Position numbers and translations under genes: made by a program. Below, one piece after another: positions 16,641-31,733 of a stretch of DNA of 64,000 bases. Position 1 is the first letter of the stretch. Each line of letters starts with the position of its first letter. This DNA comes from Deltaproteobacteria bacterium (GTDB lineage Bacteria; Myxococcota_A; Polyangia; Nannocystales; Nannocystaceae). The notes below the pieces were generated by a model. That model did not search any database. It saw only the letters and a program-made list of their open reading frames with translations, and was not told the DNA's origin. The stretch lies in contig JADJEE010000012.1 of NCBI GenBank assembly GCA_016709225.1, forward strand, positions 1,987,630 to 2,051,629, given 5' to 3'.

Positions 16641-17975
16641 ATGAAGCCTGGCGACACGCTGACCGTCATGGCCGAGACGCTGTCGAAGCACGGCGACGGC
16701 GTGGCCCGACAGGGCGGCATCGAGATCCACGTCGCGGGTCTGCTGCCGGGTGAGACGGGCGACGTCGAGATCGACTACGTCAGCCGCCAGAAGCCGCGCG
16801 CCCACGCCCGCGTGGTGCTGCGACGCAACACCCATCCCGGTCGTCGTCCGGCACCGTGCCGCCACCACGGACGCTGCAACGGCTGTGGTCTGATGGACAT
16901 GGACCTGCCGAGCCAGCGCCAGCTCAAGCGCGTCGAGCTCGAGCGTACCTACGGCATCTTCATCGATCGCATGGTCGGCGAGACCCTCGACGGTCGCGGC
17001 TATCGCCACTCGAGCAAGCGCGTGTTCGCCGGCAGCCCCGGACACATCCGACTCGGCAGCTACATGCGGGGCACCCACAACGTCGCCGACATGGGCGGCT
17101 GCCTGGTCGATCATCCCGACATCGCGGCCTGTGCCGACGAGCTGGCGCAGGCCGCCGATGCCGTGCACGCCGTGCCCTACGACGAGACCGACGGCGAGGG
17201 CGACCTTCGCTACGCCTGGTTCAAGGCCGACGGTCGGGGCCGCGTGCTGCTCGCGATCATCACGGCCGAGCCGTGTCACACCGCGGTGCACGAGGTCGCC
17301 TCGCGGCTGACGATCCCGGTCGGCATCGCGTGGGGCGTCAACGCGCGCATGGGCAACGACATGCGCGGCACCACACTACGACCGCTGCGTGGCCGCCAGA
17401 GCATCGAGATCGAGTTCGCCGATCCGCTCCGCGACGAGGCCATCGTCAGCCATGTCGGCGCGTTGGGCTTCCTGCAGCCGAACCCGCAGGTCGCGTCGTT
17501 GGCCTACCACGACTTGGTGCGGGTGCCGGCCGGCGGCGCCCTGCACGGACGCACCGCGCTCGATCTCTACGCCGGCGCGGGCGTGACCACGCGCCTGCTG
17601 CGACGCCACTTCCAGATGGTCGCGCCGTGCGAGTCGTTCCCCGAGAGCGCGCGGGCGCTGGGCGCCGAGCCCGAGCTGGTCGAAGAGTTCCTGGCGCGCA
17701 TCCTCGCCGATCCACACCACCTGCATCGCCACCCCGAGCTGGTGGTCGCCAACCCGCCGCGCGGTGGGCTCGGCCCCACCGTCTGCGAGCAGCTCAACAC
17801 GCTGGCAGTTCCGCGCCTGCACATCATGAGCTGCTCGCCCGGATCCCTGGTCGAGGACCTCCGTCGCCTCACCGGGGAGCACGGCCGCTACAAGCTCATC
17901 GGTGCGCGAGCGTTCGACACCCTGCCCCAGACCAACCACATCGAGGTCGTGGTCTGGCTGGTCGGCCGAAGCTGA
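16641..17975 (+). CDS. 23S rRNA (uracil-C5)-methyltransferase of the RumA/RlmD family (TRAM domain, Fe-S Cys cluster, SAM methyltransferase)
   Basis: N-terminal TRAM-like domain, a Cys cluster (CRHHGRCNGCG), and a C-terminal SAM-methyltransferase fold (LDLYAGAGV…). ATG at 16641. Confidence 0.8.
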   Translation: MKPGDTLTVMAETLSKHGDGVARQGGIEIHVAGLLPGETGDVEIDYVSRQKPRAHARVVLRRNTHPGRRPAPCRHHGRCNGCGLMDMDLPSQRQLKRVELERTYGIFIDRMVGETLDGRGYRHSSKRVFAGSPGHIRLGSYMRGTHNVADMGGCLVDHPDIAACADELAQAADAVHAVPYDETDGEGDLRYAWFKADGRGRVLLAIITAEPCHTAVHEVASRLTIPVGIAWGVNARMGNDMRGTTLRPLRGRQSIEIEFADPLRDEAIVSHVGALGFLQPNPQVASLAYHDLVRVPAGGALHGRTALDLYAGAGVTTRLLRRHFQMVAPCESFPESARALGAEPELVEEFLARILADPHHLHRHPELVVANPPRGGLGPTVCEQLNTLAVPRLHIMSCSPGSLVEDLRRLTGEHGRYKLIGARAFDTLPQTNHIEVVVWLVGRS

Positions 17976-18099
17976 TCCAAGCGCTCGCCCGCGCCGCTTG
18001 GTGCCGCGCCGACCGACGGTTCCGCGGCCGACCCGAACGAGGGTGCTTGCCGCCGCCGGGCGATTGGGGCGACAATCGAACGCACAGAAGAGGTGCCCG

Positions 18100-18528
18100 A
18101 TGGCGAACCCGCAGAACTTCATCTCCGAGGACACCACCATCAAGGGCAGCATCACGACCGCGTCTTCGCTCACGGTCGCGGGCGCGGTCGAAGGCGACAT
18201 CAACGCCGGCGGTGACGTGACCATCCTCGCCGACGCGTCGGTCCGCGGCGACGTCTCCGGCCCCGCGGTCACGATCTCCGGCAAGGTCGAAGGCCGTGTG
18301 AACGCGTCCGGCCGCCTGCTCATCACCGCGCGCGGCTTCGTGCAGGGCGACATCGCGGTGCGCTCGCTCCACATCGAAGAGGGCGGGACCCTGCAGGGGC
18401 AGTGCAACATGGGCTCGGCGGCCCCTGCCGCGGCCAAGGCCGGCAACGGGCGCACGATCGCGCCGCCGTTGTCCTCGCTGACGCCTCCGCCCGCCTCGCC
18501 CGCGGCAGCGCGCCCGCCCGAGCGCTGA
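18100..18528 (+). CDS. Bactofilin (polymer-forming cytoskeletal protein)
   Basis: Repeating beta-helix pattern I.G…V.G.I.A.GDV.I…V.GDV. GAAGAGG ribosome-binding site before the ATG at 18100. Pro/Ala-rich C-terminal tail. Confidence 0.8.
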   Translation: MANPQNFISEDTTIKGSITTASSLTVAGAVEGDINAGGDVTILADASVRGDVSGPAVTISGKVEGRVNASGRLLITARGFVQGDIAVRSLHIEEGGTLQGQCNMGSAAPAAAKAGNGRTIAPPLSSLTPPPASPAAARPPER

Positions 18529-18649
18529 GATCGTCGTTCGTTCCCCGCCGACGCTGCGCGCGAGGCTGCGCACTCGGCCGCCGCGGGACCGCTTGCAACC
18601 CGGCGCGCGTGCGCCCGTCCAGACAACACAACCGGAGAGAACCACCACC

Positions 18650-19060
18650 ATGCCCCGCAATCGAATCCTGTTCCTGCTGCTGGCCCCCGTCCTCGCGCTC
18701 TCGGCGTGCAAGAAGGACTCGGCCGTCCAAGAGACCATCGACCTGCTGGACAAGCACAGCAAGGAGATCAAGGCGAAGGTCACCGACGCCACCGACAAGA
18801 AGGCGGGCGTGGCCGAGGCGCAGAAGTACATCGACGCCAACAAGGACGACATCGCCAAGCGCATCAAGGAGATGGGCGAGCTGAAGGGCTTCCAGGTCAG
18901 CGAGGAGATGCAGTCCAAGATGGCCTCGTCGCTGGTCGACGCCGCCTTCATGTGCAGCAAGATTCAGGTCGACCTGATGTCCGCCACGATGGAGGACAAG
19001 GACCTCGACGCCTCGCTCGAGAAGCTCTGCAAGACCTGGGACGACGCCGTCAAGATCTGA
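18650..19060 (+). CDS. Small lipoprotein, predicted helical, unknown function
   Basis: MPRNRILFLLLAPVLALSAC lipobox. ACCGGAGAGA ribosome-binding site before the ATG at 18650. Lys/Asp/Glu-rich mature protein. Confidence 0.6.
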   Translation: MPRNRILFLLLAPVLALSACKKDSAVQETIDLLDKHSKEIKAKVTDATDKKAGVAEAQKYIDANKDDIAKRIKEMGELKGFQVSEEMQSKMASSLVDAAFMCSKIQVDLMSATMEDKDLDASLEKLCKTWDDAVKI

Positions 19061-19117
19061 CGCTCGACGCACAAGGACGCGCACGCGACCTGAGCCTTTC
19101 TCCGGTCCCGAGAGGCC

Positions 19118-19146
19118 CGACGGCTAACCCCCGCCGGGCCTTCTGC
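19118..19146. terminator. Putative bidirectional hairpin between convergent genes
   Basis: AGGCCCG-(15-nt loop)-CGGGCCT stem followed by TCTGCGTTGGTTG. Confidence 0.35.
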
Positions 19147-19155
19147 GTTGGTTGC

Positions 19156-19338
19156 TCAGCGATAGCTCATGTGCAGATCGCAGCGCGTCGGCGTGAACGA
19201 GGCCACGCGCACGCGGACGTCCTTCTCGCCGCCGAGCTCGAGCGCGGCCTGCACGGCGGTCGCGTAGCAGCGCGCGATGAGCTCGGGCACGAGGTGCGGC
19301 GGATAGTCGATGACCCAGAAGTCACCGTTAGGGCGTCG
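19156..19338 (-). pseudogene. 3'-terminal gene remnant, about 60 aa, with no start. The reading frame opens directly after an in-frame TAG.
   Basis: The reverse-complement frame gives …NGDFWVIDYPPHLVPELIARCYATAVQAALELGGEKDVRVRVASFTPTRCDLHMSYR* with high third-position GC. The upstream side is cut by a stop codon and by the start of the lower-GC island. Confidence 0.35.
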
Positions 19339-19582
19339 CTACGCCCGCGAGGTGATGCCACGATGCATGCGCGCGAAGATGTCGCGCCCGCAGCTGCGAC
19401 CTTCCCTGCCGACAGTCGCAGGAGAGACCGTCGAAGGACCTTGCGGTCGCAGCGACGCAGCTCGACCGGTCGATCGCGCGGGGCACCGCCGAGTTCCGCG
19501 ACGCACTACGACATTCGGCCGCTGCGCTGCCCGCGGTCGTCGTGCTCGGCCTTAGCACGCTTGGCGGACACCCGAGAACAGA

Positions 19583-19723
19583 CTACGGACCACGGGCGAC
19601 AGCCCGCTTCATGACGCCGTCCAGCCCGTCCCACGTCACCCGCAGCAGGCGCGCAACGCCCGAGATGCCGGCCTCGTTCAGCCAGTCGATCACGAGGCCT
19701 CGAAGATCATGGATTTGCGGCTC
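19583..19723 (-). pseudogene. Possible IS630/Tc1-like transposase N-terminal HTH remnant
   Basis: …IHDLRGLVIDWLNEAGISGVARLLRVTWDGLDGVMKRAVARGP* follows the DLRxRV..EAGxSxxxAAxxFxVSxxxxxRWxxR..G pattern of IS630 transposase N-termini, but is truncated after about 45 aa. Confidence 0.3.
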
Positions 19724-20000
19724 CCCGGGAGAATTCGTGGGTCGATCGCAGCGTTGCGTGAGGCCGAGTTGTCGGTCCTGCCCCCGTCGTCCCCCTGCAC
19801 GGGACCCGAGCCGCGGGCCGATTGGCCAATCGTCAGACCACACGAGCGAGTACGATCTTTCCTCACGACTTACGGAAGAACCATCTACTCTCGACCTACG
19901 GCAGGCCGTTGTAGTCACCGTGTCCCCTCGCTCGGCCAAAAGGCCACTAGTCAGCAGCTTGCGCGTACGCTCGAATCGGAGCATTGAACGACCCAATTGA

Positions 20001-20030
20001 CTTGACGCAGTCCCAGAACCCCGCTAGATA
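20001..20030 (+). promoter_or_regulatory. Candidate sigma-70-like promoter upstream of the first Cys-rich secreted paralogue
   Basis: TTGACG, 17-bp spacer, TAGATA. Confidence 0.3.
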
Positions 20031-20072
20031 TGCACTACGCATGTGGCTCAGGCAGCAAGGACATCCCACGCA

Positions 20073-20561
20073 ATGCGCAAACCAACCCTGGGCGGCCATA
20101 TGAATCGCAGATCGTGTATAGCCATTCTGTTTGTTGCTGGGTCGGGACTAGGCCTTGCGCTTCACCCTACGACTTGGTCGTTTGCGATGGCTGAAACCCC
20201 GCGCAATTCGCCCGTCCCGGCCCCCTATTCGAAGAGCGGGGAAGCAGAGGTCTCGCGCGCAAGCGCAACTGACACGCTGAGCTCGTGCACATGGGAAACC
20301 TTCAGCAGCACAACATCGGCTCTCGTCAATGCGGCGTGTCCGATACCTGCCAAGCGCGTAATCTCCGGCGGCTGCATCAGTAGCGCCTCGGGGCGCAAAC
20401 TGATTTGGATGCACCCATACGAGGAGGCCGCAATTGGGTCGCTTCCACTGCCCGACAACGGAGAGTGGTGGCACGCAACCGACGGCAACACAGGCTGGTC
20501 GTGCAACTTCTCCTCGTCTGGGACTACGAATACCGCGCTGGCGCTTTGTTGCGGCACCTAG
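20073..20561 (+). CDS. Small secreted Cys-rich protein, paralogue 1 of 3 in tandem. I could not place it in any family I recognise. C-terminal LCCGT.
   Basis: Signal peptide MRKPTLGGHMNRRSCIAILFVAGSGLGLAL (alternative ATG at 20100). Three conserved blocks: SCTW…S..TS, CP….ISGGC, and W…NTGWSC.F … ALCCG. Lower GC than the backbone. Confidence 0.55.
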   Translation: MRKPTLGGHMNRRSCIAILFVAGSGLGLALHPTTWSFAMAETPRNSPVPAPYSKSGEAEVSRASATDTLSSCTWETFSSTTSALVNAACPIPAKRVISGGCISSASGRKLIWMHPYEEAAIGSLPLPDNGEWWHATDGNTGWSCNFSSSGTTNTALALCCGT

Positions 20562-20646
20562 TTGCAATCAGCGTAGTCAGCCACTACGGATCGCGTCTGC
20601 CAGAAGGCGCTGAAAGACGATCAGCACAGTGAACACACGGACAACA

Positions 20647-21210
20647 ATGAGTCTTGTAGCCGGCGCCGGGCTTGCGTTGTTTCTGCTAGTCGGAGCAGGA
20701 GTGGCGGGCGCTCAGGCCGAGATCACGAACTCTGCCGACAACTATTCACCCCGTCTCAATGACGGGACTGTTGGGGATGGCCGCGATGGCCGCAGCAGCA
20801 ACACGCCAGCGGCCAACACCGACGAACTTCGCAGCGATGCAGTCGCGGTGCTCGCAGACTCGACTGACCATCTAAACAGTTGCGGCTGGCGTACGACCAG
20901 CGCATCGTGTGACTGCATCACGAATGATTGCGGAGCACTTCCGAATCACTGTGGGTACACGGTTGCATGCCCGGTTGGAGAGGCGGCAATCTCCGGCGGC
21001 TGCCGAATTTCGGGCGACTCAAGCGTCGAACTTCTTTCAAGTCGTGTGTATTCAAACTCGTCACCACTTCAGCTACTATATGCGACTGTTTGGTGGGGAG
21101 TGAGCGCAAATACTGGCTGGAGCTGCGAATTTGACAACGTAGACACGATGCCTTCCGGTTGGCCGCCAGTGTTTCCTACGATTGAAGTCACGGCGCTTTG
21201 CTGTGGATAG
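20647..21210 (+). CDS. Small secreted Cys-rich protein, paralogue 2 of 3. C-terminal ALCCG.
   Basis: Signal peptide MSLVAGAGLALFLLVGAGVAGAQA, with a GTG 18 nt upstream as an alternative start. The same blocks are present: SCGW, CPVGEAAISGGC, NTGWSCEF, ALCCG*. Confidence 0.55.
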   Translation: MSLVAGAGLALFLLVGAGVAGAQAEITNSADNYSPRLNDGTVGDGRDGRSSNTPAANTDELRSDAVAVLADSTDHLNSCGWRTTSASCDCITNDCGALPNHCGYTVACPVGEAAISGGCRISGDSSVELLSSRVYSNSSPLQLLYATVWWGVSANTGWSCEFDNVDTMPSGWPPVFPTIEVTALCCG

Positions 21211-21248
21211 CACGTCCAAGGTCCTCATCGCGAATAGGCATATACGTC

Positions 21249-21731
21249 ATGGCACCAGTGCATCTTTCCAAAGGCCGGCCAGGTCGGGGACACCACTTTC
21301 AGCTTGTCTTGCTGTTCCTGTGCTCCGCAAGTTGCTCTTCGTTGGACCAAGGCGACGATAAGCCTATTCCGGCGACCCCGAACGATGACGACGGAGATAG
21401 CGAATCGGCCGACGACGATGAAGCCGTGGAACGGGCAGGGGCGTCCGATGAATTGGACACTTGCTGGTGGGTAGCATCACCGAATGGTGGCACGTCGGTC
21501 GGCACCGACTTTACGGTGAACTGCCCGGCGTCAAGACGGCCAATTGCAGGCCATTGCATGCACACCGGCTCCGCGCAGCTAACGGATTCACACCCGTTCG
21601 AAGCGAGCAATGCATCGAATCTCCCAGAAGCTGGGGAGTCCTGGTACTCGACTAGTAGCACGGCGGGATGGCGCTGCGCTTACGACGCTTCGGTGTCAGC
21701 ACAGATCGGCGTACTTTGTTGCGGATCATAG
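21249..21731 (+). CDS. Small secreted Cys-rich protein, paralogue 3 of 3. C-terminal VLCCGS.
   Basis: The listed start is a TTG that overlaps the stop of paralogue 2; the ATG at 21249 (MAPVHLSKGRPGRGHHFQLVLLFLCSASC…) gives a signal peptide. Blocks: TCWW, CPASRRPIAGHC, TAGWRCAY, VLCCGS*. Confidence 0.55.
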   Translation: MAPVHLSKGRPGRGHHFQLVLLFLCSASCSSLDQGDDKPIPATPNDDDGDSESADDDEAVERAGASDELDTCWWVASPNGGTSVGTDFTVNCPASRRPIAGHCMHTGSAQLTDSHPFEASNASNLPEAGESWYSTSSTAGWRCAYDASVSAQIGVLCCGS

Positions 21732-22203
21732 AAGGCTCGCTGTCCTGACTCTGGCGTTCGCAGGAACACATGATTTTGCGTTGGCGGGCGTCCGTGATAC
21801 GCTTGCCGTGACGCGCCGCGCGGGTGACTATGTGGCACGGGATCTCGTCCAGGCAGAGGTGCTCTGGATCGTCGGTGTGTTCGCGATCAGCGAACTGTGA
21901 TTGAGGCGGAGGTCGTCTCGTTCGTTCGCTCCCGGGTCGACTCCGCGGCTCCGCCATCGCGAACTCGCGGGTGTGCACGTTGGTGCGGTTGCCAGGTCGG
22001 GTCCACCTGGATCGACTTCGTGTGCTGATTCAGAGATTCGCGGGAGAAGCCGCTGCGCGCGCAATGCGCGAGCAGTGGTGCGCGATGGAGGCGAGGATGT
22101 CGTCGGCGCTCTTGGTCCAGGCGGACGGCTTCGGCTCGTCGTTGGTGCAGTGTCCGTGCGCCGGACCGCGTGCGTGGTTGAAGCAGCCGCGGGGCTTCCC
22201 GGT

Positions 22204-23810
22204 TCAGCCGCGCGCAGACTTCCAGCTCGCCGGCAGTAGATCTGCCGCGTCGGCCTCGCGGACGCGCCGCGAGAGCCGAGCGAGCACGTCGGTGAGGTAC
22301 GCGACCGGGTCGACGTCGGCGAGCATGCAGCAGCCGAGGATCGTGTACACCGCCGCAGCTCGGACGCCGCCGGCATCCGAGCCCGCGAAGAGGAAGTTCT
22401 TGCGGGTGAGTGCGACGCGGACATGCATGCGTTCCACGGCACCGTTGTCGAGCGGGATGTCTGGATCGTCGAGGAACCGGAGCAGCGCGTCTTGGTGGTT
22501 GAGCACGTATCGGATCCCACCGCCCATCGGTGACTTCGGCGGTTCGAAGGGTTGGTGCGTCTCGCACCAGCGGATCAGTTCGCCGCAGACTGCCGCGCTC
22601 TTCGTGGCGCGCTCGGCGTGCCGCGCTTCGCGATCGAGACCGCGGATCTCGTCTTCGATCTGGTACAGCACCTTGTACGCCGAGACCGGCAGCGAGGCGC
22701 GATCGTCTCCGGCCTCGAGCGCGGCGACGAACTTCCGACGTGCGTGCATGTTGCACCCGCACTCGATGATGTCGTCGCGCGCGAAGCTCTTGTCGAAGAG
22801 CGTCGCAGCGTCCGCGACCGTATAGCCCTTGCGCAGCCTCAACAGATCCTCGGGACCGATCTCGCCTTCGCGCTGCCCGACCTTCTTGCCGGTGCTCGCG
22901 TAGAAGTAGAACGCCGAGTCGTCGCCGACGCAGCCCCACAGCGAGCCGATTCGCTTGCCCGTGCCGACGCGCTTGTTGGTGCCATCGCGGTCGAGCACCG
23001 GCAGACCTGTGCCGTCGATATGCATGATCTTCGCCGCGAGCGTGCGCTCCTTCGCGGCGCGCACGAGCGGTGCCAGCAGCTCCGTCGCCCACGTCACCTG
23101 ATCGGCGAGCGTCGACACCGATAGCTCGACACCGAGACGCGCGAAGCGATCGCGCTGCCGATGCAGCGGCAGGCCATCGCGGTACTTCTCGACGAGCAGA
23201 TTGGCGACGAGCGCACAGCCCATCCGTCCGCCCTGGACCACCTTGTCGCCCAGCGGCGCGCGCACGACCTCGGCCTCGCAGTCGTCGCACGCCAGCTTCT
23301 CGCGGCTGTCGACGCGTATACGATCACCTCGGCCGGGATCAAGTCGAGGATCTCGGTCGTGTCGTGCCCGATGCACCGCCGCTCCTTGCCGCATCGCGGG
23401 CACGGCCGAGCAGCGGTCGGCACGACGATCGGGTTCGGAATCCGCCGCAAGTTCGCCGGCAGCGGGCGGCGAAGCGGCGGCTGAGGAGGCGCCGGCGTGC
23501 CTCCGCGCGCCGCAGGTGCGACCTCCTCGCTGGTCTCGCGCAGCTTCTGATCCGCTGCGTCGCGGGTCGCGTCGCCGGTGCTCGCGAGGCTCTCGAGCAG
23601 CAACGCGAGCTGAGCCGTCGACACGCCCTCGTTCGTGCGACGAGGTGAGCGAAGCTCGGCGAGCTTGCGTTCGAGCTCGCTGTTGCGGGCAACGAGCTTC
23701 GACACGAGCTCGAGCACCGTGTCGAGCTGGCCCTTGTCGAGCAGCTCGCGAAGCACCTCGAGCACGGGGGCGCGCTTCGTCGTCGTGCTTGCCGATCCCG
23801 TCTTGCTCAT
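22204..23810 (-). pseudogene. tnpC: IS66-family transposase TnpC, with the reading frame split by a single-nucleotide frameshift near 23335
   Basis: The N-terminal leucine zipper and zinc finger (…CPRCGKERRCIGHDTTEILDLIPAEVIV) are in one frame (ORF 23094..23948). The rest (…IRVDSREKLACDDCEAEVV…DGLPLHRQ…DDPDIPLDNGAVERMHVRVALTRKNFLFAG…) is in the -1 frame (ORF 22204..23850). The junction is gaggtgatcGtatacgc. Confidence 0.75.
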
Positions 23811-23898
23811 GCCGACGTCGACACCATAGCGGCGTCCGGCGCCGCGGCAACCGAAAATCATCGCACGCCCGCGTGTGGTTGCGCGCGGTCGCCCGGCA

Positions 23899-24267
23899 TC
23901 ACGCGCGTGCGTGCATCGGCGGCTCCCATCGACGTGACGCGCGAGCACGTGTGATGTCGATGCCCTCGAGTAGCATCGAGAGCTCGTGCACGTCGATCTC
24001 GACCGTCGACACCTCTTCGGCCACGCGCTGTGGAAACGTGAAAGTGCCCCGCTCGAGCCGCTTGTGCACGATCGTGAAGCCGCCGCGCGTGTACACCAGA
24101 AGCTTCACCTGGGTCTTGCGCCGGTTGAGGAAGACGAAGACGTGCCCGCTCAGCGGATCTTGCGCGAGCACGCTGCGAACGTCGGCACTCAGCCCGTCGA
24201 ACGATCGCCTCAAGCTCACCGGCGACGTCGCGACGTACACCTTCACTGCCCGCAGCAGCAGGATCAC
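23899..24267 (-). CDS. tnpB: IS66 Orf2 (TnpB)
   Basis: VILLLRAVKVYVATSPVSLRRSFDGLSADV…DPLSGHVFVFLNRRKTQVKLLVYTRGGFTIVHKRLERGTFTFP. GTG start that overlaps the TGA stop of tnpA (GTGA). Confidence 0.8.
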   Translation of the reverse strand: MILLLRAVKVYVATSPVSLRRSFDGLSADVRSVLAQDPLSGHVFVFLNRRKTQVKLLVYTRGGFTIVHKRLERGTFTFPQRVAEEVSTVEIDVHELSMLLEGIDITRARASRRWEPPMHARA

Positions 24268-24614
24268 GTCTTCGGCCTCAAGGTGATCATCTCCGAGACG
24301 AGTTGAGCGAGCCACTGTGCCGACACACGATCGGCGCGCACCTCGATCTCGACCTCGCCGACGTGCACCACGACCTCGGCCACCACCGCCGGCTCGGACG
24401 CCAGCATCGGGACGAACTTGACCGCGCCGCGCGTGCCCTCCGTCGCGACGCGCCGCTTCCACCACCGCAGCCTCCCGCTGCCGAGCTCATGCCGCCGCTC
24501 GAACTCCGCGAGCGTCAAACCACTGCGCTTCCACGCGCGAACTGCTGCGCGGCCATCGGCCGTCGTCCATCGCACCCCGCTCGCCGGCGCCGTCCACTCG
24601 CTCCCGCGTGACAT
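24264..24614 (-). CDS. tnpA: IS66 Orf1 (TnpA, HTH)
   Basis: …WKRSGLTLAEFERRHELGSGRLRWWKRR… pattern of IS66 Orf1. The ATG at rc 24614 lies inside the 73-bp duplicated segment. Confidence 0.7.
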   Translation of the reverse strand: MSRGSEWTAPASGVRWTTADGRAAVRAWKRSGLTLAEFERRHELGSGRLRWWKRRVATEGTRGAVKFVPMLASEPAVVAEVVVHVGEVEIEVRADRVSAQWLAQLVSEMITLRPKT

Positions 24615-24745
24615 GCCCGCGAGCGTGCACGATCACTGGGCGGCCACGCGGGTGCGCTCGGGCGGACGGACACCTCCCGCGTGACATGCCCGCGAGCGTG
24701 CACGATCACTGGCGGCCACGCGGGTGCGCTCGGGCGGACGGACAC
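24601..24745. repeat. Tandem direct duplication (73 + 72 bp) inside the IS66 right end. Each copy contains the tnpA ATG and ends with the IS terminus sequence ggcggacggacac.
   Basis: 24601-24673 and 24674-24745 are identical except for one G. The 13-mer ggcggacggacac therefore appears three times (24661, 24733 and the true terminus at 24799-24811). Confidence 0.85.
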
Positions 24746-24961
24746 GCGCGTGGCTGAACCGGGAAGCCCCGCGGCTGCGTCAACCACGCACGCGGTCCGG
24801 CGGACGGACACCCACGGTCGTCGAGCACGAGCGCGGTCGGTCGAGATGGTCGCGCTTCAGGGTTGTCGGTGGGCGGCCCAAAGCGGCGCGCGCCCAACGC
24901 GGCCGGCGTGCTATGAGCATGCTGGCTCGCGTGGGCGCGTCTCCGGGGTCAAGCGGCAGCG

Positions 24962-25372
24962 TCAGATTTGCTCGAGGCAGGAGGCCGGCGGAGAGAGTCT
25001 CTCGAACCCGAGCTCGCCACGTGCAGAGGTCAGCTCAGCCACGATGGTTGAGTGTGGGACTTGCGCCATGCGCCCTACCATAAAGCCACGGTAGTTACGC
25101 ACAGCTTCACGTGGGGTCAGTTGGCCGAGAGTGCCGGACGAGACCCACTCCGCCGTGAGGACGTCGATCGCGAGCGCGGTGGCCTCCGACTTCGGCGGCG
25201 CAGGCACGTACTGCGATCGGATCTCAGCCACGCGTCGGGCGTCGAGAGTGTAGGTGCCGACTCGAGCGACTGAGCAGTCCTCGCCCTCAGACGGACCGGG
25301 CGCCGGACCAGGAACCGGGCCTTTGCACGCCGGGCAGATCACGATCAGCAAGGTGAGGAAGTAGCGTTGCAT
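24962..25372 (-). CDS. Small secreted or lipoprotein (136 aa), tightly coupled downstream of the S8 protease. Possible cognate inhibitor or chaperone.
   Basis: MQRYFLTLLIVICPACKG signal peptide. AGGAGG sits 6 nt before the ATG, and the start is 10 nt after the protease stop. Lower GC. Confidence 0.6.
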   Translation of the reverse strand: MQRYFLTLLIVICPACKGPVPGPAPGPSEGEDCSVARVGTYTLDARRVAEIRSQYVPAPPKSEATALAIDVLTAEWVSSGTLGQLTPREAVRNYRGFMVGRMAQVPHSTIVAELTSARGELGFERLSPPASCLEQI

Positions 25373-25381
25373 GACATCCTC

Positions 25382-27868
25382 CTAATCACCGCCGCCATCA
25401 GGCTCATTGTCCACTTCAGACGTGGCCATGCAGAAGACATGAACAACCGCAGACCCCGAACTACTCACCCATTCTTTGTCGACGGTCACCTCGACGCACG
25501 TGTCCTCCACGTTGACCAGCGAGTCCTCGAACGCTACCATTTTCTTGTGATCGTGATCAGCGTTGATGCGCGTGTAGCTAGGAGTACCGTAGCCGACCGC
25601 GCAGGTGCCATTCCCCTGCTTCGGGCGCAGGCGCAGCTCGAGATCGATGCGACTGATGTTGTCCTTTCCGGACATGTCCTCGATCGCCATCATGACGCAC
25701 TTGACCTCTTCGGTGCCCGTTGCAACAGGGCCACCAAAGGCGATGTATTGCTGGTCTGCGGTACCACTGGTGAATGTGTAGGTGTTGTACGAGAGCGCAC
25801 CTCCCGCAAAGCTCGGCGAGCCGTTCGAAAGCAAGCGGAGCTTCGCTCGTCCGAGACCAAAGAGGTTGTCCGCACCCACGACGTTCTTCGTTCCCGAGCT
25901 GTTGCCCCGGTCACCCATGCCGAGCATCACCGTGTGCAAGCGTCCCACGTTCGAGATCCACGTTTGGCCATCGTTCAGACCCCAGTCCTTGACGAGAGCC
26001 GCCATCCCGGCAACAGCCGGCGCGGCAAAACTCGTACCGACCCACTGCCCGGTGCTCACGCAGCCGTTGGTGCCGGAGCCCGAGGTTACGTAGTTCACGT
26101 AGGCAGATGGCGCCGCGAGGTCTGCCATGGACAACGCCCCGCCCACCGTCGTTCCGTCCGGCGACTGGATAGACCCACCGCCGCGACTCGCGTAGGTGTC
26201 GTCGATATCCATGACCGAGTACAACGTGTCGTCCGTGCTGAGCCCGTTGACCGAGAAGGTCTTGGGAATGTCCGCAGGGCTGGACATGTTGCACGACGAT
26301 CCCGTCGTGCCGTTGTTCCCCGCCGATACCGCGATGAAGATGCCGTCGTCGAACGCGCCCTCGTAGGCGTCCTCGAGATCATAGCTCGAAGTCGCGTCAC
26401 AGGTGGCGTTCGGATACGAATCACCATCATTCCAGCCGTTGCTACTGCTGATGATGCTCGTGAGATAGCAACTACCCGGACCGGATGGCGTGAGCTCAAT
26501 GTCGATGCCCTGAAGGCAACTCGTTGACATCACGTGACGGCTCATCAGGGTGCTACCCTGGTGATCGAAGAACTGAACGACCGCCTCCTTTCCGTAGCCG
26601 CTCGCCGAGTTCTCCCACGAGGCACTGTGGTTCGTGGTGCTGTCGCAAACCGTCAAGCCTTGAGCCTGATCCTGGGTGTAGTCGCCGACAGCGATGGAGG
26701 ACACGACGGTGCCGTGGTTGACGTTCGAGGCCTCCGAGTAGTTGGCTTGTGAGTAGCTCTCACAGTACTCAACCCAACACTTCCACCGGCCAAGGAGCCG
26801 TTCAGTCTCGCATCCACTGTCGTCGTCAAAGAAGCACGCTTCGTCATTGAAGTGCCACTGCTCTTGGATGCCGATCGTGATTTGTCCCGCACCGTTTTCA
26901 GCGTTGAATCCGGCGTCGATGTACGTCTGAGCGTCAGTGTAGGAGCGCGAATCTCGATGGATTCCGATCGCGCGGCTGCCGTGCGACTGAAGACCAACGT
27001 CGTCGAGATCGATCTTCGTGATGTCTTCGCGCGCCTGCAGCTCCTCCAACAGGCCCTTCGAGACAGAAGCGCCTAGCCACCCCGTGGTCCAGTGATAGAC
27101 GCGGATCGTTCCGCCGCTTTCCACGATCTGTGCTGCCAATGACGACGACCGCTCCAAAAATGCTTCCTCTCGCTCGGCCAGCGCGACTTCGCGCTGTTCG
27201 ACCGCGGCAGCATACGTCTCTGCGCTCCACATCCCCACCTCAGGAAGTAGCGGAACATCCCAATCGGGGGCACCCCGCAACTTGATCAGCACGTCGAGGG
27301 AGTCATCCGGTCCAGCTTCCTCGGCCGCAGCGAGGAGGGTAGGACGCACCACGAGAGGCGCATCGTCGGATGGTTCCGCAGGCGGGTCGACGTTTGGAAC
27401 TCGAGTCACCCGATAGGTGTCGGTGCGCGTGCCTTCCGCGTCCACGACCGACGTTACCGTCTCTTCGTACAGGTACTCGTCCTGTAGGTGCGTATAGGGA
27501 CGCGAGACCTTCCGCCAGGTCTCAAGGTCCAGCTCACCGACCTCCGTTGACGAGACCATCTCGCCACTTTCGTTCTCTACGAGAACCTTCTCGTACACCA
27601 ACTCGCGTCCAGCATTAGCTGCGTCCGGATCTCGTACTTCGGTCTCGACATCGCCAGCACCGCCCGAGCTCCCTTCCTCAATCTCATCCGCGGGGAGGAC
27701 TTCCGAGCGTGGGCTATGCAGCCCTCCCTCGGCACTGTCGACGGGCGCTCGGTCATCGCAGGCGGGCGCGAGAGCCAATGTGGATAGAGCCCACATGCGA
27801 CGCAGGCACGTCCAGCGGTTCGCACGGGAATTGCCAATCGCAACAAGCTTCTTCGCCGAGGTTGACAT
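25382..27868 (-). CDS. Subtilisin-like serine protease (S8) with a long N-terminal pro-region, 829 aa
   Basis: His motif NVNHGTVVSSIAVG and Ser motif GTSFAAPAVAGMAALV. Signal peptide MSTSAKKLVAIGNSRANRWTCLRRMWALSTLALAPAC. GGAGA ribosome-binding site before the ATG at rc 27868. Lower GC than the backbone. Confidence 0.85.
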   Translation of the reverse strand: MSTSAKKLVAIGNSRANRWTCLRRMWALSTLALAPACDDRAPVDSAEGGLHSPRSEVLPADEIEEGSSGGAGDVETEVRDPDAANAGRELVYEKVLVENESGEMVSSTEVGELDLETWRKVSRPYTHLQDEYLYEETVTSVVDAEGTRTDTYRVTRVPNVDPPAEPSDDAPLVVRPTLLAAAEEAGPDDSLDVLIKLRGAPDWDVPLLPEVGMWSAETYAAAVEQREVALAEREEAFLERSSSLAAQIVESGGTIRVYHWTTGWLGASVSKGLLEELQAREDITKIDLDDVGLQSHGSRAIGIHRDSRSYTDAQTYIDAGFNAENGAGQITIGIQEQWHFNDEACFFDDDSGCETERLLGRWKCWVEYCESYSQANYSEASNVNHGTVVSSIAVGDYTQDQAQGLTVCDSTTNHSASWENSASGYGKEAVVQFFDHQGSTLMSRHVMSTSCLQGIDIELTPSGPGSCYLTSIISSSNGWNDGDSYPNATCDATSSYDLEDAYEGAFDDGIFIAVSAGNNGTTGSSCNMSSPADIPKTFSVNGLSTDDTLYSVMDIDDTYASRGGGSIQSPDGTTVGGALSMADLAAPSAYVNYVTSGSGTNGCVSTGQWVGTSFAAPAVAGMAALVKDWGLNDGQTWISNVGRLHTVMLGMGDRGNSSGTKNVVGADNLFGLGRAKLRLLSNGSPSFAGGALSYNTYTFTSGTADQQYIAFGGPVATGTEEVKCVMMAIEDMSGKDNISRIDLELRLRPKQGNGTCAVGYGTPSYTRINADHDHKKMVAFEDSLVNVEDTCVEVTVDKEWVSSSGSAVVHVFCMATSEVDNEPDGGGD

Positions 27869-28633
27869 GCACAATTCTCCAGACCGGTGTTTCGGTCGGT
27901 TCGTCGGTACAGATCGTTGCCACGCCGCGCACATGTCCGCGCGCGGTGGCCCAGATTGGCCAAAACTCTGCGGCCGAGCATACGGCCGATTGGGCAGATG
28001 TGTCAACCGATGATTTTGCGTCAGAAGTATGAGTTCTTTACTCGGCGTCTAGCCGGGTCTAGCCGGACAATTTGCGGCGTCGGCAATGCAACACGGTTGG
28101 CATCGTTGGGTGTCAAAGTGACGCTCTCCGGGAGAATAGTCGCGCGGTTTCCGTACGCTGCGCACCTTCGCCAGCGCTGAACCAAGGCGAGGTAAGGAAG
28201 AGACCAGCGTGATGCTTCAATAATTCGCCGGCGGCCGGGGAGCGAGCGCCACCGACCTTTCAGCTCCTGTGGCACGCTACGTCCGAAGTGGGATGGCAAC
28301 GTCGCAGACGTCGTGGACGACACCAGGCGGCTCACCGCGATCGCGATTGCCCCCCTCGTCTCTCGGCCGGTGCGCATTCACTGGTTGTGCAGCTCGGCAG
28401 GAAGTCAGTCAGAAGGAAGACAGCGAGCGCTCCGTGTAGAAGCTCACAAGTGGCCATTGGATCACTCGGCTTGGACCTCAACACCGGTTACCGGGGGCCT
28501 TGAGCTACTGCTCGTCTTGCCGTGGAGGCCGTTCCCCTGGGAGAGAGTTCGTGGGCGGTCGGGTAGATCGTCGAGTAGCGACATGAGGACCGAGGGCGCG
28601 CAGCCACCCGTGTCGATGTCGCGAATCTGTGAC

Positions 28634-28658
28634 AGGCGCACCAAGCGCAGCGCTTCGC
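28634..28658. promoter_or_regulatory. Perfect 11-bp inverted repeat (caagcgcagcg-ctt-cgctgcgcttg) about 50 bp upstream of the Cys-rich lipoprotein gene. Candidate operator.
   Basis: Seen directly in the sequence, inside an 840-bp lower-GC intergenic region between divergent genes. Confidence 0.3.
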
Positions 28659-28708
28659 TGCGCTTGGCATACCTGGACATGACGTGGCGGTGGTGGCATG
28701 CTCAGCGC

Positions 28709-29224
28709 ATGGCAAGATTGTGGTCGCATCCAGCGACTTCGTTTGTTTGTCTCCTATCACTGAGCTGTTCGGACCGGAAAGGCGGCGATGAGGGCGTGGC
28801 GTCTAACACCGCCTCAAGCTCGGACGGGGATGGCGAGAACGGGAACTCCGAGGGTTCTTCCACGACGAGCGAAGCACTCGGGGTCGAGGATTGCGAAGGT
28901 CTCCTTGTCGAGGCCGACTGCAACAACGCCATGCTCGCCGATGTTGGCCAATGCATGTGGGTCCCGAGATACGCACCGGCGCCCGGCGTGACAAGCTGCG
29001 GAGCACAAGACGCAACGGAGGCGTGCGTTGGAATCATCGGTAGTCAGCAGGGATGCGGGCTGTATTCTTGTCCTGGCGATGAAGGCGTCAATATCTACTA
29101 TCGACAAGCAGATGGCGGAATTGAACTGTTCGTCAGCCCTCTGTGCGGCCCGGAACCTGTCGGGGGGTGGATGGCGTGCCAGGCAAACATCCCCGAGTGT
29201 TCTTGTCCCTGCTCTGCTAATTAG
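28709..29224 (+). CDS. Cys-rich lipoprotein, paralogue A
   Basis: MARLWSHPATSFVCLLSLSCS signal peptide. Conserved core C.GI.G.QQGCGL..C…..LY.R…..E.F.SP.CGPEPVG.W.AC……ECSC.C shared with the next gene. Confidence 0.6.
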   Translation: MARLWSHPATSFVCLLSLSCSDRKGGDEGVASNTASSSDGDGENGNSEGSSTTSEALGVEDCEGLLVEADCNNAMLADVGQCMWVPRYAPAPGVTSCGAQDATEACVGIIGSQQGCGLYSCPGDEGVNIYYRQADGGIELFVSPLCGPEPVGGWMACQANIPECSCPCSAN

Positions 29225-29231
29225 GAGGCAT

Positions 29232-29666
29232 ATGAAGCGCGCATGCCTGATCCTGCATGTTACCTTGCTGGGAGTGACAGCCTGCACCCAGACTGAGCTT
29301 GAAGACTGCGAGAAGATTCAGCACGAGTCAAAATGTGAAGATGCCGATGTTGATGGCGCGGGTGCCTGTCATTGGGTCGAGGCCTATCGGCCGTCTGTGT
29401 CGGAAACCGCATGCGAAGTGGGCGAGCCGACCGGCTTGTGCGTCGGCATCGGAGGCACCCAACAGGGCTGCGGTCTCTTTGGGTGCGAGCCAGGGTCCGA
29501 AGATGAATCGGCGAACCTCTACTTCCGCCATGATGGCCCGCAGGTCGAAGTGTTCGGCAGCCCAGAGTGCGGCCCCGAGCCAGTCGGCGATTGGACCGCT
29601 TGCTCGAGCGCCGACGCGCCGGCCGAGTGTAGTTGTCTGTGCGGCGTCGCAGAGCCGCCCTCGTAG
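29232..29666 (+). CDS. Cys-rich lipoprotein, paralogue B
   Basis: AGGAGG ribosome-binding site. MKRACLILHVTLLGVTAC lipobox. Same Cys framework as paralogue A. Confidence 0.65.
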   Translation: MKRACLILHVTLLGVTACTQTELEDCEKIQHESKCEDADVDGAGACHWVEAYRPSVSETACEVGEPTGLCVGIGGTQQGCGLFGCEPGSEDESANLYFRHDGPQVEVFGSPECGPEPVGDWTACSSADAPAECSCLCGVAEPPS

Positions 29667-29730
29667 GGCCGGCGCCGCTAACTTACGATGCGGCATGTGT
29701 CAACGAGAATGAGATTTTTGGGTTGAGAGT

Positions 29731-30797
29731 TTAGTGAAGTCCGAGCTCGCTCTCCGAGCGATTCTCGGGTGGGTTGATCCAGACTGCCTTGGGGAGCGTG
29801 GGCACCTGCGGTGGGCCTGCGACGAAGCGCTCTGGGTTCTTCGCGAAGGCTTCGTTCATCACGAGCTGGCGCTGCGCGAGGACCTCGGTGGCGCGCCCGA
29901 AGAAGACGTCGGCGGGAGTGAGGCGAGCGATGCCGGAGTGCCGGTGCTCGTCGTTGTACCAGGCGAAGAAGCGCCGGCAGAAGTCGCGCGCGTGGTCGAA
30001 GCTCTCGAAGCGCTCCGGGAAATCTGGGTGCGACTTGAGGGTGTGGAACTCGGACTCGGAGTGCGGGTTGTCGTTGCTGACGCGCGGTCGGCTGAACGAC
30101 GCCGTGATCTCGAGGTCGCGCAGCAGCTGCTTCACAGTCTTGCCCCTGGGCACGGGCCCGCGGTCGGCGTGCAGCTTGAGCGTGCCCGGTTCGATCCCGT
30201 GGCGGTTGCACGCCTCGCGGATCAGCTTCGCCGCGAGCTCGCCGCTCTCCTCGTGGGCGAGCATCCAGCCCGGGTTGTAGCGGCTGAAGAGATCGATGAT
30301 CACGTACAGCGGGTAGTAGGTGTACTTCACCGGACCGCGCAGCCACGTCACGTCCCACGTCCAGACCTGGTTGGGTGCCGTGGCGATCAGTTCGGGTCGC
30401 GCGTACTTTGGGTGCCGGGCTTGATCGCGGCGCTCGCGGATCTCGTCCTGCAGCGCCAGAATCCGATACATCGTGCGGGGATGGCAGAGGTAGTGCTGCT
30501 CGTCGAGCAACGTGGCGTGCACGGTCGCCGGCGCCTTGTCGACGAAGCGCTCGGAGTGGAGCACCTCAAGCACGTTGGTCCGCTCGGCTTCGGAGAGCGC
30601 GCGTGAAGGTCGTCGACGTGGTCGGCGGGGGGCCATGCAGGGGCCGGCTGCCGCCAGCGGTACGCAGTGCTCCGCGGCACGCCGAGCGCCTCGCAGGCGA
30701 CCGCCACGCCGAGCTGGTCCGCGAGTTCGTCGACCGCTGCCTTCACGTCGGCTCCTCGGTGTCGTCGCTGTCCAGCCCCAACACCTCCGAGAGTTTT
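29731..30797 (-). CDS. IS3-family transposase OrfB (DDE integrase core), expressed as an OrfAB fusion by -1 frameshifting
   Basis: …VWTWDVTWLRGPVKYTYYPLYVIIDLFSRYNPGWMLA…HADRGPVP…WYNDEHRHSGIARLTP. The upstream part of the listed ORF is out-of-frame junk. Confidence 0.8.
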
Positions 30798-31150
30798 TTT
30801 TGGACCTCGATGATCTTCTCGGCCTTGCGCAGCTTCTCGCGCAGGCGCTCGTTGTCACGCCGCAGCTTCTCCAGCTCGGCCTGCTCCGCCGTCTGCTTCG
30901 GCTTGGGTCCGCGTTTGCGCTCCAACGCCTTCAACGTACCCTCGAGCCTCTGCCCGCGCCAGCTCGTGAGGTGCGACGAGTACAGGCCCTCTCGCCGCAG
31001 CAGTGCGCCCACTTCGCCCGGCTTCGTGCAGGCGTCGGCATCCTGCAGCACGCGCAGCTTGTACTCCTTCGTGAAGCGCCGCCGATGCGCTCTCTCTCGG
31101 GTCTCCGTCTCGACCTTCCGTGGGTTCGCGCTCGATGTCATTTCGTACAT
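30743..31150 (-). CDS. IS3-family transposase OrfA (HTH plus leucine zipper)
   Basis: MYEMTSSANPRKVETETRERAHRRRFTKEYKLRVLQ…LEKLRRDNERLREKLRKAEKIIEVQKKLSEVLG. Ends just after the slippery site. Confidence 0.8.
   Translation of the reverse strand: MYEMTSSANPRKVETETRERAHRRRFTKEYKLRVLQDADACTKPGEVGALLRREGLYSSHLTSWRGQRLEGTLKALERKRGPKPKQTAEQAELEKLRRDNERLREKLRKAEKIIEVQKKLSEVLGLDSDDTEEPT
30794..30801 (-). promoter_or_regulatory. Programmed -1 ribosomal frameshift site: A AAA AAA heptamer, seen as T8 on the plus strand
   Basis: OrfA frame reads …GTC CAA AAA AAA CTC…; the OrfB frame continues at -1. Confidence 0.6.
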
Positions 31151-31452
31151 GGTCCCTCGCGCCCCTCAGTAAATTCCGGCTCGGCAGTGTCTCATCCCTC
31201 GTTGGCACAGGGGGCGCGCTGCTCGACTGGGTACGCGCCGGGGCTCCGGACGCAATGAAGGAGCGTGAGGTCGAGCAGGCCGCGGTTCTGCTCGAGCGCG
31301 TCCTCAACCAAGAGACCGAGCCCGAGCCCGGCCGACCAAGACGAGTACAGACCCGCAGGGGCGTCGCTGGCGTCGCTGAACACCGCGTCTGCGACCCGAA
31401 CATGCGCCACGGCCGAAAAATGCCGCTCACACGCCTTCAACGGCTACAAGCG

Positions 31453-31680
31453 CTAGATCGCGACTTCGATCGACGCGCCGCTCGTGCTCGCAGCCGAAGC
31501 GCGACCCGCCAACCAACCCGAACGCGGGGTGAACCCTCGCTCGTTGACCAAGTAGCGCCGTACGGCGAGTTCCACGAGTTCTTCATCGACCACGGCTTTC
31601 TTGCACATGCCGAGATCGCCGCGCTGGATCGAGACGGCGTGAAAGTCCGCCGTCGTCCCTGGCGCGACCAGACCAAGCAT
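31453..31680 (-). CDS. Small hypothetical ORF (75 aa) between the IS3 element and the metalloprotease gene
   Basis: Good third-position GC bias (MLGLVAPGTTADFHAVSIQRGDLGMCKKAVVDEELVELAVRRYLVNERGFTPRSGWL…), but no recognisable domain. Confidence 0.25.
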   Translation of the reverse strand: MLGLVAPGTTADFHAVSIQRGDLGMCKKAVVDEELVELAVRRYLVNERGFTPRSGWLAGRASAASTSGASIEVAI

Positions 31681-31733
31681 GAAGGCTTCGGCAACAGCGC
31701 CTTCAAGATCGGCCTTCGCCGACGATTAAGTGG

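Follow-up and report, generated by a model that had tools for sequence, protein, structure and literature searches.

IS66 family elements carry terminal repeats of about 20 to 30 nt that start with GTAAGCG, and they are associated with 8-bp target duplications (PMC11946415). Within the family, the repeat of ISPsk01 reads GTAAGCGTCCGGCG... (PMC12888890), and ISBst12-type elements possess a single ORF, without tnpA and tnpB, together with 8-bp duplications (PMC12898284). The locus described here lies in the window, by which we mean the whole 64,000-nt stretch of DNA that was analysed. Very probably it is an unnamed insertion sequence of the IS66 family, present as one fixed, non-autonomous copy, with a native unit at 22150-24673 and a 66-nt inverted repeat of secondary origin.

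Genes, family, and genomic setting

The element, its genes, and the adjoining remnant are arranged as follows.

22150-24673, minus strand: probable native IS66-family element, 2,524 bp, equal in length to relatives L002 and L003
24264-24614, minus strand: tnpA, 116 aa, NCBIfam IS66 TnpA accessory protein
23899-24267, minus strand: tnpB, 122 aa, PF05717 TnpB_IS66
22204-23810, minus strand: tnpC, a pseudogene for a zinc-finger (N-terminal) DDE transposase of the IS66 type, divided over two frames
23317-23320, minus strand: frameshift lesion, GTGATCGTATACGCGTCGAC in the window versus GTGATCGTGCGCGTCGAC in relatives, within the conserved AEVIV-RVD motif
22030-22149, minus strand: IS630-family transposase remnant, C-terminal 39 codons, abutting the IS66 right tip

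An initial reading made from the letters alone (the sequence-only reading) had proposed an IS66-family element with tnpA, tnpB, and tnpC, and the Pfam and NCBIfam profiles bear this out. The GTG start of tnpB overlaps the tnpA stop as GTGA at 24264-24267, also as proposed. TnpB matches PF05717 (7.7e-32) as well as NF033819, and TnpA matches NCBIfam NF047593 with 38 bits (cut-off, 28). When its frame is repaired, TnpC matches PF03050 (1e-57, profile positions 2 to 282 of 284), PF13005 zf-IS66 (6.5e-9), and NCBIfam NF033517 transpos_IS66 (6e-88 and 295 bits; cut-off, 180), such that zf-IS66, DDE_Tnp_IS66, and the IS66 C-terminal element are all recovered by profile search. In intact relatives, TnpC, with its zinc finger and DDE domain, would act on both ends, aided by the accessory proteins TnpA and TnpB, and an 8-bp target duplication would be generated on insertion.

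The best metagenomic match to TnpC is a protein of 91% identity, and a scan of GTDB genomes, the source genome not among them, returned relatives at 60% identity or less, plus one fragment at 84%. The clade to which the element belongs is a separate one, distributed mostly in Myxococcota-type metagenome-assembled genomes (MAGs).

The copy sits within a 12.7-kb strain-specific island that is absent from related genomes and is built of mobile-element debris. The 39-aa fragment in its flank was assigned to the IS630 family by tblastn against plasmids; neither this fragment nor the neighbouring ORFs had a match in NCBIfam. A search for the empty site by way of neighbouring genes found related genomes without the whole 12.7-kb island, and the exact pre-insertion site was not recovered. 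The neighbouring gene is also listed for a contig of more than 1 Mb.

Element ends and the 66-nt inverted repeat

One piece on the right and three on the left make up the ends.

22150-22215, minus strand: right end, which doubles as an arm of the 66-nt repeat; approximately its outermost 24 to 30 nt are the native IRR, and the tnpC stop is at 22204-22206
24601-24673, minus strand: unit B2, probable native left end, 73 nt, tip of the IRL type, GTGTCCGTCCGCCCGAGCGCACCC; includes the start codon of tnpA
24674-24745, minus strand: unit B1, apparently the native left end duplicated in tandem, 72 nt, beginning exactly at the tip
24746-24811, minus strand: fragment A', the outer arm, 66 nt, apparently an IS66 right end copied in inverted orientation, with the IRR-type signature GCCGGACCGC

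The inverted repeat at 22150-22215 and 24746-24811 to which the sequence-only reading drew attention is real. Its arms are 66 nt long and 95% complementary, with the outer ends GTGTCCGT.../...ACGGACAC as given there, and they are mismatched at three positions (9, 33, and 61 of the arm) where two had been counted. In the 64-kb window, the 32-nt end pattern occurs at the two arms only, against an expectation of 0 from shuffled sequences. The 13-mer at the right-end tip, GTGTCCGTGCGCC, departs by a single change from the consensus of the clade, GTGTCCGTCCGCC.

The native terminal repeats begin GTGTCCGTCCGCC, and the native IRL (read from 24673) and IRR (read from 22150) align imperfectly over about 24 to 30 nt, compared with repeats of 21 to 32 nt in relatives. 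Relatives display a conserved asymmetry between left and right ends, with GCCCGAGCGC in the IRL and GCCGGACCGC in the IRR, by which both B1 and B2 are of the IRL type and A' is of the IRR type. A' additionally contains GCGCGTGGCTGA, which is the reverse-complemented end of tnpC (its final three codons and the stop), and is therefore a displaced fragment of a right end. B1 and B2 are distinguished by a single C within a C-run. Judged from these signatures, three pieces are stacked on the left side, namely, A' (66 nt), B1 (72 nt), and the true left end.

A' and B1 could be the scars of IS66 copies that inserted into siblings, within their end regions, after which recombination or deletion would have taken away the remaining sequence and the target duplications. 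We infer this route from the arrangement; neither an intermediate nor a sibling copy was found in the source genome. When the right flank was compared with each of the three possible left tips, no 8-bp direct repeat was present, which extends the failure of the sequence-only reading to find a clean target-site duplication, and the loss of the duplication here is attributed to later rearrangement.

Extra end pieces anchored at a tip occur at three loci: the window, L049, where a 100-nt inverted left end lies outside the right tip, and L119, where a 32-nt left end is repeated in tandem. A search of metagenome contigs for the specific left-end pattern found nothing, and among 120 loci obtained with a less strict tip pattern, a real extra tip was present in L119 only. 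A relaxed 12-mer search yielded some 20 loci with closely spaced tips, but nearly all were chance matches with one mismatch in GC-rich DNA, so the claim of recurrence is limited to two loci besides the window. That tip-anchored pieces constitute a recurrent footprint of IS66-family transposase behaviour, such as a preference for sibling copies' end regions as insertion targets, is a tentative idea that we consider doubtful. If true, it would offer an initial hint of mechanism in a family for which the chemistry of transposition is poorly characterised, and end-anchored duplications, if systematic, could inform on IS66 target choice.

Replication slippage or template switching between short tip repeats, as opposed to transposase action, is an unlikely origin for the stack. 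Slippage is a common source of tandem duplications and B1 and B2 are near-identical tandem units, but all three units begin exactly at a transposon tip, and the tip-anchored pattern recurs in copies as unrelated as L119 and L049, inverted in the latter. Moreover, 3 of the 66 positions of A' differ in the resident right end, so A' is not a fresh copy of that end.

Still less probable is the view taken in the sequence-only reading, that the arms are native terminal repeats of a complete IS66 variant whose mobile unit spans 22150-24811. A family-type tip is present at both of the highly complementary arms, and long repeats are known from two relatives, the distant L049 (100 nt) and L027 (about 50 nt, with gaps). 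Against this, the closest relatives (L002 and L003; 87% nucleotide identity, 2,524 bp, with repeats of about 24 nt) can be aligned only between the inner tip at 24673 and the right tip, and across the nearest relatives the repeats are about 21 to 24 nt, with a left tip matching the inner one. Two more intact left tips would lie inside the supposed element, its outer left arm is of the right-end type and includes the end of tnpC, its outer boundaries are without a target duplication, and the genome appears to have no second copy. As for L049, five sibling copies within its genome lack the extra 100 nt, which are, for this reason, also secondary. The 66-nt repeat is, by the same comparisons, probably secondary and not native to the element.

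No obvious target duplications were seen when the flanks of L002 and L003 were inspected, which weakens these two as clean reference copies and may be explained by chimeric metagenome assembly. Among farther relatives, the repeats are mostly 15 to 32 nt, and clean 8-bp duplications are present in L004, L006, L007, L008, L023, L032, L038, and L064. Since a few relatives, L027 for example, have longer repeats, the repeat length of the clade is not rigidly 20 to 30 nt.

Independent assemblies and the tnpC lesion

The source MAG consists of thousands of contigs, and repeats are prone to misassembly, yet it is extremely improbable that artefacts of sequencing or assembly account for the frameshift and the stacked left end. 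The GTATAC insertion is shared by the Logan assemblies of five runs, and the junction of the flank with A' and B1 is 100% identical in four; this identity in independent assemblies of several runs indicates that neither feature is an assembly error. The contigs in those runs end 30 nt into unit B, as expected of a true tandem repeat, and the common 13-nt tip would be too short for a misjoin in a k=31 graph. Two separately deposited MAGs have an identical structure and are one synonymous SNP apart. Examples of runs with this sequence are ERR14790672, SRR21875704, and SRR34217586. At the right tip, contigs continue into the flank without interruption, which suggests that the genome contains no other copy.

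The tnpC frame is broken, and its two halves stand in a -1 relation (equivalent to +2), as the sequence-only reading had noted. That reading had the frames meet near 23335 and suspected a 1-nt indel, but the break is at 23317-23320, and DNA alignment identifies it as a net insertion of 2 nt, with GTATAC in place of the GTGCGC of relatives. Removing TA at 23318-23319 restores a 534-aa ORF that is collinear with its homologues. TnpC follows its native sequence as far as residue 164, a point that separates the zinc-finger region from the catalytic domain. All 120 listed TnpC homologues are single ORFs, of which 119 are 514 to 582 aa in length and the other, P0012, is truncated, with 385 aa. In homologues down to 60% identity, the alignment is continuous across the lesion site, and AEVIVRVD is contained in one ORF.

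Because of the net +2-nt insertion, this copy is predicted to be unable to make TnpC. The sequence-only reading had left two options, an inactivated copy or a -1 slip, and the first is correct; its proposed check, that reads might reveal an intact tnpC ORF, had the opposite outcome, as the assemblies of at least five independent runs share the insertion.

In IS3/IS1-type families, the split transposase frame is conserved and is situated on a slippery heptamer. Expression of tnpC through programmed -1 ribosomal frameshifting of this kind would be compatible with the -1 relation and with both frames being open over the junction, but it is scarcely credible and is rejected because every listed homologue is a single ORF and a slippery site is absent (a direct reading of GAC TTG ATC CCG GCC GAG GTG ATC GTA TAC GCG shows that the frame junction lacks a heptamer of the form X XXY YYZ), with the further objections that the site is a +2 insertion within an invariant motif and that the upstream frame continues for 74 codons past the lesion instead of reaching a nearby stop.

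Comparison with known systems

With IS66, IS679, and ISPsk01-like three-ORF elements, the locus has in common the tnpA-tnpB-tnpC order and the overlap of tnpA with tnpB. Its likeness to canonical IS66 extends to a native unit of about 2.5 kb, repeats of about 20 to 30 nt, and the 8-bp duplications of its relatives. The tips of the clade grade from GTGTCCGTCCGCC through GTGAGCGTCCGG, the latter resembling the tip of ISPsk01, GTAAGCGTCCGG, and the tip of the element has GT...CGTCCG in common with the ISPsk01 repeat (PMC12888890).

In contrast to canonical IS66, the tip is GTGTCCGTCCGCC and not GTAAGCG, related without being identical, and TnpC is only about 38 to 40% identical to plasmid-borne IS66 transposases, the best of them at about 40%. 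The copy itself further differs in being frameshifted, in having no target duplication, and in bearing extra end fragments. The ISBst12 group encodes the DDE transposase of the same family, but in a single ORF as opposed to the three genes here. The -1 split of the frame is shared with IS3/IS1-type elements, whereas here it is private to the copy and results from a +2 insertion at a place with no slippery site.

The fitting annotation is that of an IS66-family pseudo-element with native bounds 22150-24673, and not of an insertion sequence with 66-bp repeats, and of tnpC as a pseudogene with a +2 insertion. Its significance beyond annotation is small, although the copy also marks the 12.7-kb island. 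The element is of an already-known kind, an ordinary dead IS66-family copy that is new as an unnamed member of the family.

Ends of the element

What the window holds is an inactivated, structurally scarred and, it seems, single copy of an unnamed IS66-family element. A sequence-only reading had described a complete IS66 element with long terminal inverted repeats and a frameshifted tnpC; its observations hold with minor corrections, as do the family and the option of an inactivated copy, but not its long native repeats, 1-nt indel, or -1 slip.

Features of the element and its right flank
24811-24746 (in element orientation): A', 66 nt, right-end signature
24745-24674 (in element orientation): B1, 72 nt, left-end signature
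24673-24601 (in element orientation): B2, 73 nt, left-end signature; holds the tnpA ATG
24264-24614, minus strand: tnpA, IS66 accessory gene
23899-24267, minus strand: tnpB, with its GTG start within the GTGA closing tnpA
ATG at 23810 to stop at 22204-22206, minus strand: tnpC, with a change of frame part-way
22030-22149, minus strand: IS630-family transposase remnant, its last 39 codons adjoining the IS66 right tip and the remainder missing

An inverted repeat of 66 nt has its arms at 22150-22215 and 24746-24811, which are 95% complementary, with three mismatches (arm positions 9, 33, and 61) rather than the two first reported, and a 32-nt end pattern occurs in the window at these two sites only (0 expected from shuffles). 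The 13-mer tip GTGTCCGTCCGCC, the outermost sequence of an end, is found three times on the left side (at 24811, 24745, and 24673), and the right tip is one further copy with one change; chance expectation is 0.48, and a count of 4 was reached in 0 of 100 shuffles. B1 and B2 differ solely by one C in a C-run. Left and right ends are distinguished by an asymmetry that is constant across relatives to ~59% protein identity (left, GCCCGAGCGC; right, GCCGGACCGC), with the left signature in B1 and B2 and the right one in A'. At its inner end, A' carries GCG CGT GGC TGA in reverse complement, corresponding to the last three tnpC codons and stop, with one synonymous change relative to the resident GCG CGC GGC TGA. 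Together, the right signature and the terminal tnpC codons show A' to be a piece displaced from an IS66 right end rather than a native left repeat.

In the nearest DNA relative, 87% identical and present in two contexts (loci L002 and L003), alignment to the window is limited to the span between the inner tip at 24673 and the right tip at 22150; its element is 2,524 bp, the same as that span, with repeats of ~24 nt. The native unit spans 22150-24673 and has imperfect repeats of ~24-30 nt. The "unusually long" native repeats of 66 nt are rejected because the nearest relatives end at the inner tip and A' is of right-end type.

At every extra left-side junction, DNA from the interior of the IS meets an intact tip. 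Junctions of this kind would be expected if one IS66 copy had inserted within the end region of another, and homologous recombination between direct copies would reduce such a nested arrangement to B1 and one full element. The inverted A' would require an additional deletion, with which the loss of the target duplication and the truncation of the IS630 gene are consistent. Scars of this type occur at two further loci. At L049:3100-5794 lies an IS66-family relative (~54% TnpC identity) whose repeats are extended to 100 nt by an inverted duplicate of its own left end, 100 nt long and set directly beyond the native right tip; the same 7.3-Mb contig contains five sibling copies, all of which lack this addition. 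At L119:8257-8320, an unrelated contig from a metagenome has 32 nt duplicated exactly in tandem, beginning right at an IS66-type left tip. Recurrence beyond the window is supported by L049 and L119 only; further cases from a relaxed motif search were rejected as chance matches on inspection.

Target duplications of 8 bp are clean in relatives at eight loci: GTGCGTCG (L004), CTGCGGAG (L006), CAGCGTAG (L007), GTTTCCGA (L008), CTTGGCTC (L032), CCGACAGC (L064), TTTCGCAT (L038), and GCTTGTGC (L023). In the window copy, the 8-mers before A', B1, and B2 all differ from the 8 nt past the right tip (TGCACCAA), in agreement with the initial report of no clean target-site duplication. The IS630 remnant was identified by tblastn, in which 27 aa were 70% identical to annotated IS630 transposases (E = 1e-5).

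The lesion in tnpC

The sequence-only reading correctly placed the two parts of tnpC in different frames, offset by the equivalent of -1, but the break lies at 23317-23320, ~15 nt from the site it gave. The DNA there is GTGATCGTGCGCGTCGAC in L002 and in locus L060 versus GTGATCGTATACGCGTCGAC in the window, a net gain of 2 nt, equal in frame effect to -1, rather than a 1-nt indel. Removing TA at 23318-23319 gives back a 534-aa ORF collinear with homologues; this repair and the DNA comparison identify the lesion as a +2 insertion that breaks tnpC and leaves an inactivated copy. The window protein retains all residues invariant in ten aligned homologues (60-91% identical), which leaves the insertion as the one obvious lesion in the gene.

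Programmed frameshifting, the -1 slip offered as an alternative, is rejected. All of the best 120 homologues listed have a single ORF (119 of 514-582 aa and one truncated copy, P0012, of 385 aa); LIPAEVIV-RVDSREKL is unbroken in the ten-homologue alignment; no X XXY YYZ slippery heptamer occurs in GAC TTG ATC CCG GCC GAG GTG ATC GTA TAC GCG around the lesion; and the upstream frame stays open for 74 codons past the lesion before a stop. In a close relative (L068:2386-4603, 82% identity), tnpC is also disrupted, being called as 105 aa plus 385 aa, and decay through disrupted frames seems to be frequent in this IS66 clade.

Copy number and genomic setting

The deposited MAGs GCA_020051655.1 and GCA_017996215.1 also contain the locus, and both contigs differ from the window by one C/G SNP at 22435, synonymous in tnpC (GTG versus GTC, Val). 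In independent assemblies of four runs, flank-A'-B1 is reproduced at 100% identity in contigs that stop exactly 30 nt into B1, and IS-side contigs of independent run assemblies start exactly 30 nt before the end of B2. Breaks k-1 nt into unit B (assembly k-mer, 31) are as expected for a genuine tandem B1-B2. GTATAC is present in assemblies of at least five runs. The IS-side contigs cross the right tip into the flank unbroken, and the copy therefore seems to be the only one in its genome. Positions 17899-29720 recur at 99.9-100% identity in runs ERR147906xx, ERR14173715, SRR11088415, SRR11235435, SRR116740xx, SRR21875704, and SRR34217586; recurrence across several accession series points to a repeatedly sampled, near-clonal organism.

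In related genomes with a core 96-98% identical (loci L205, L206, and L211), window position 19063 is joined to 31748 with only ~127 nt between, and 19064-31747 is therefore a 12.7-kb strain-specific island. Its G+C content is 0.55-0.63 over much of its length versus ~0.72 outside, and it contains the IS66 copy, the IS630 remnant, a ~3-kb stretch without called genes, and an S8 peptidase gene. That stretch (19061-22149) has zero genes called in the MAG annotation, its ORFs have no match in NCBIfam, and it is probably degraded sequence. Another relative, at locus L209, aligns to 17927-21764 and shares the left part of the island to that point; beyond 21764 its sequence diverges and codes for a Mu-type transposase (rve plus Mu-transpos_C_2), suggesting that mobile DNA has landed at this site repeatedly.

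Relation to the IS66 family

Profile searches matched TnpB to PF05717 (7.7e-32) and NF033819, TnpA to NF047593, and the frame-repaired TnpC to DDE_Tnp_IS66 (1e-57, nearly the whole profile), zf-IS66, the IS66 C-terminal element, and NF033517 (295 bits; cut-off, 180). These matches confirm the three-gene IS66 module that had been read from the sequence. Plasmid-borne IS66 transposases are only ~38-40% identical to the window TnpC; the nearest proteins among the matches listed (77-91% identity) are unnamed and metagenomic, and its relatives come mostly from Myxococcota-type MAGs.

Members of the IS66 family have 20-30-bp repeats and 8-bp direct repeats (PMC11946415), and the ~24-30-nt repeats of 22150-24673 agree with that published repeat length. 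The window tip GTGTCCGTCCGCC differs from the textbook IS66 tip GTAAGCG; tips within the clade grade through GTGAGCGTCCGG, near the ISPsk01 repeat GTAAGCGTCCGGCG... (PMC12888890).
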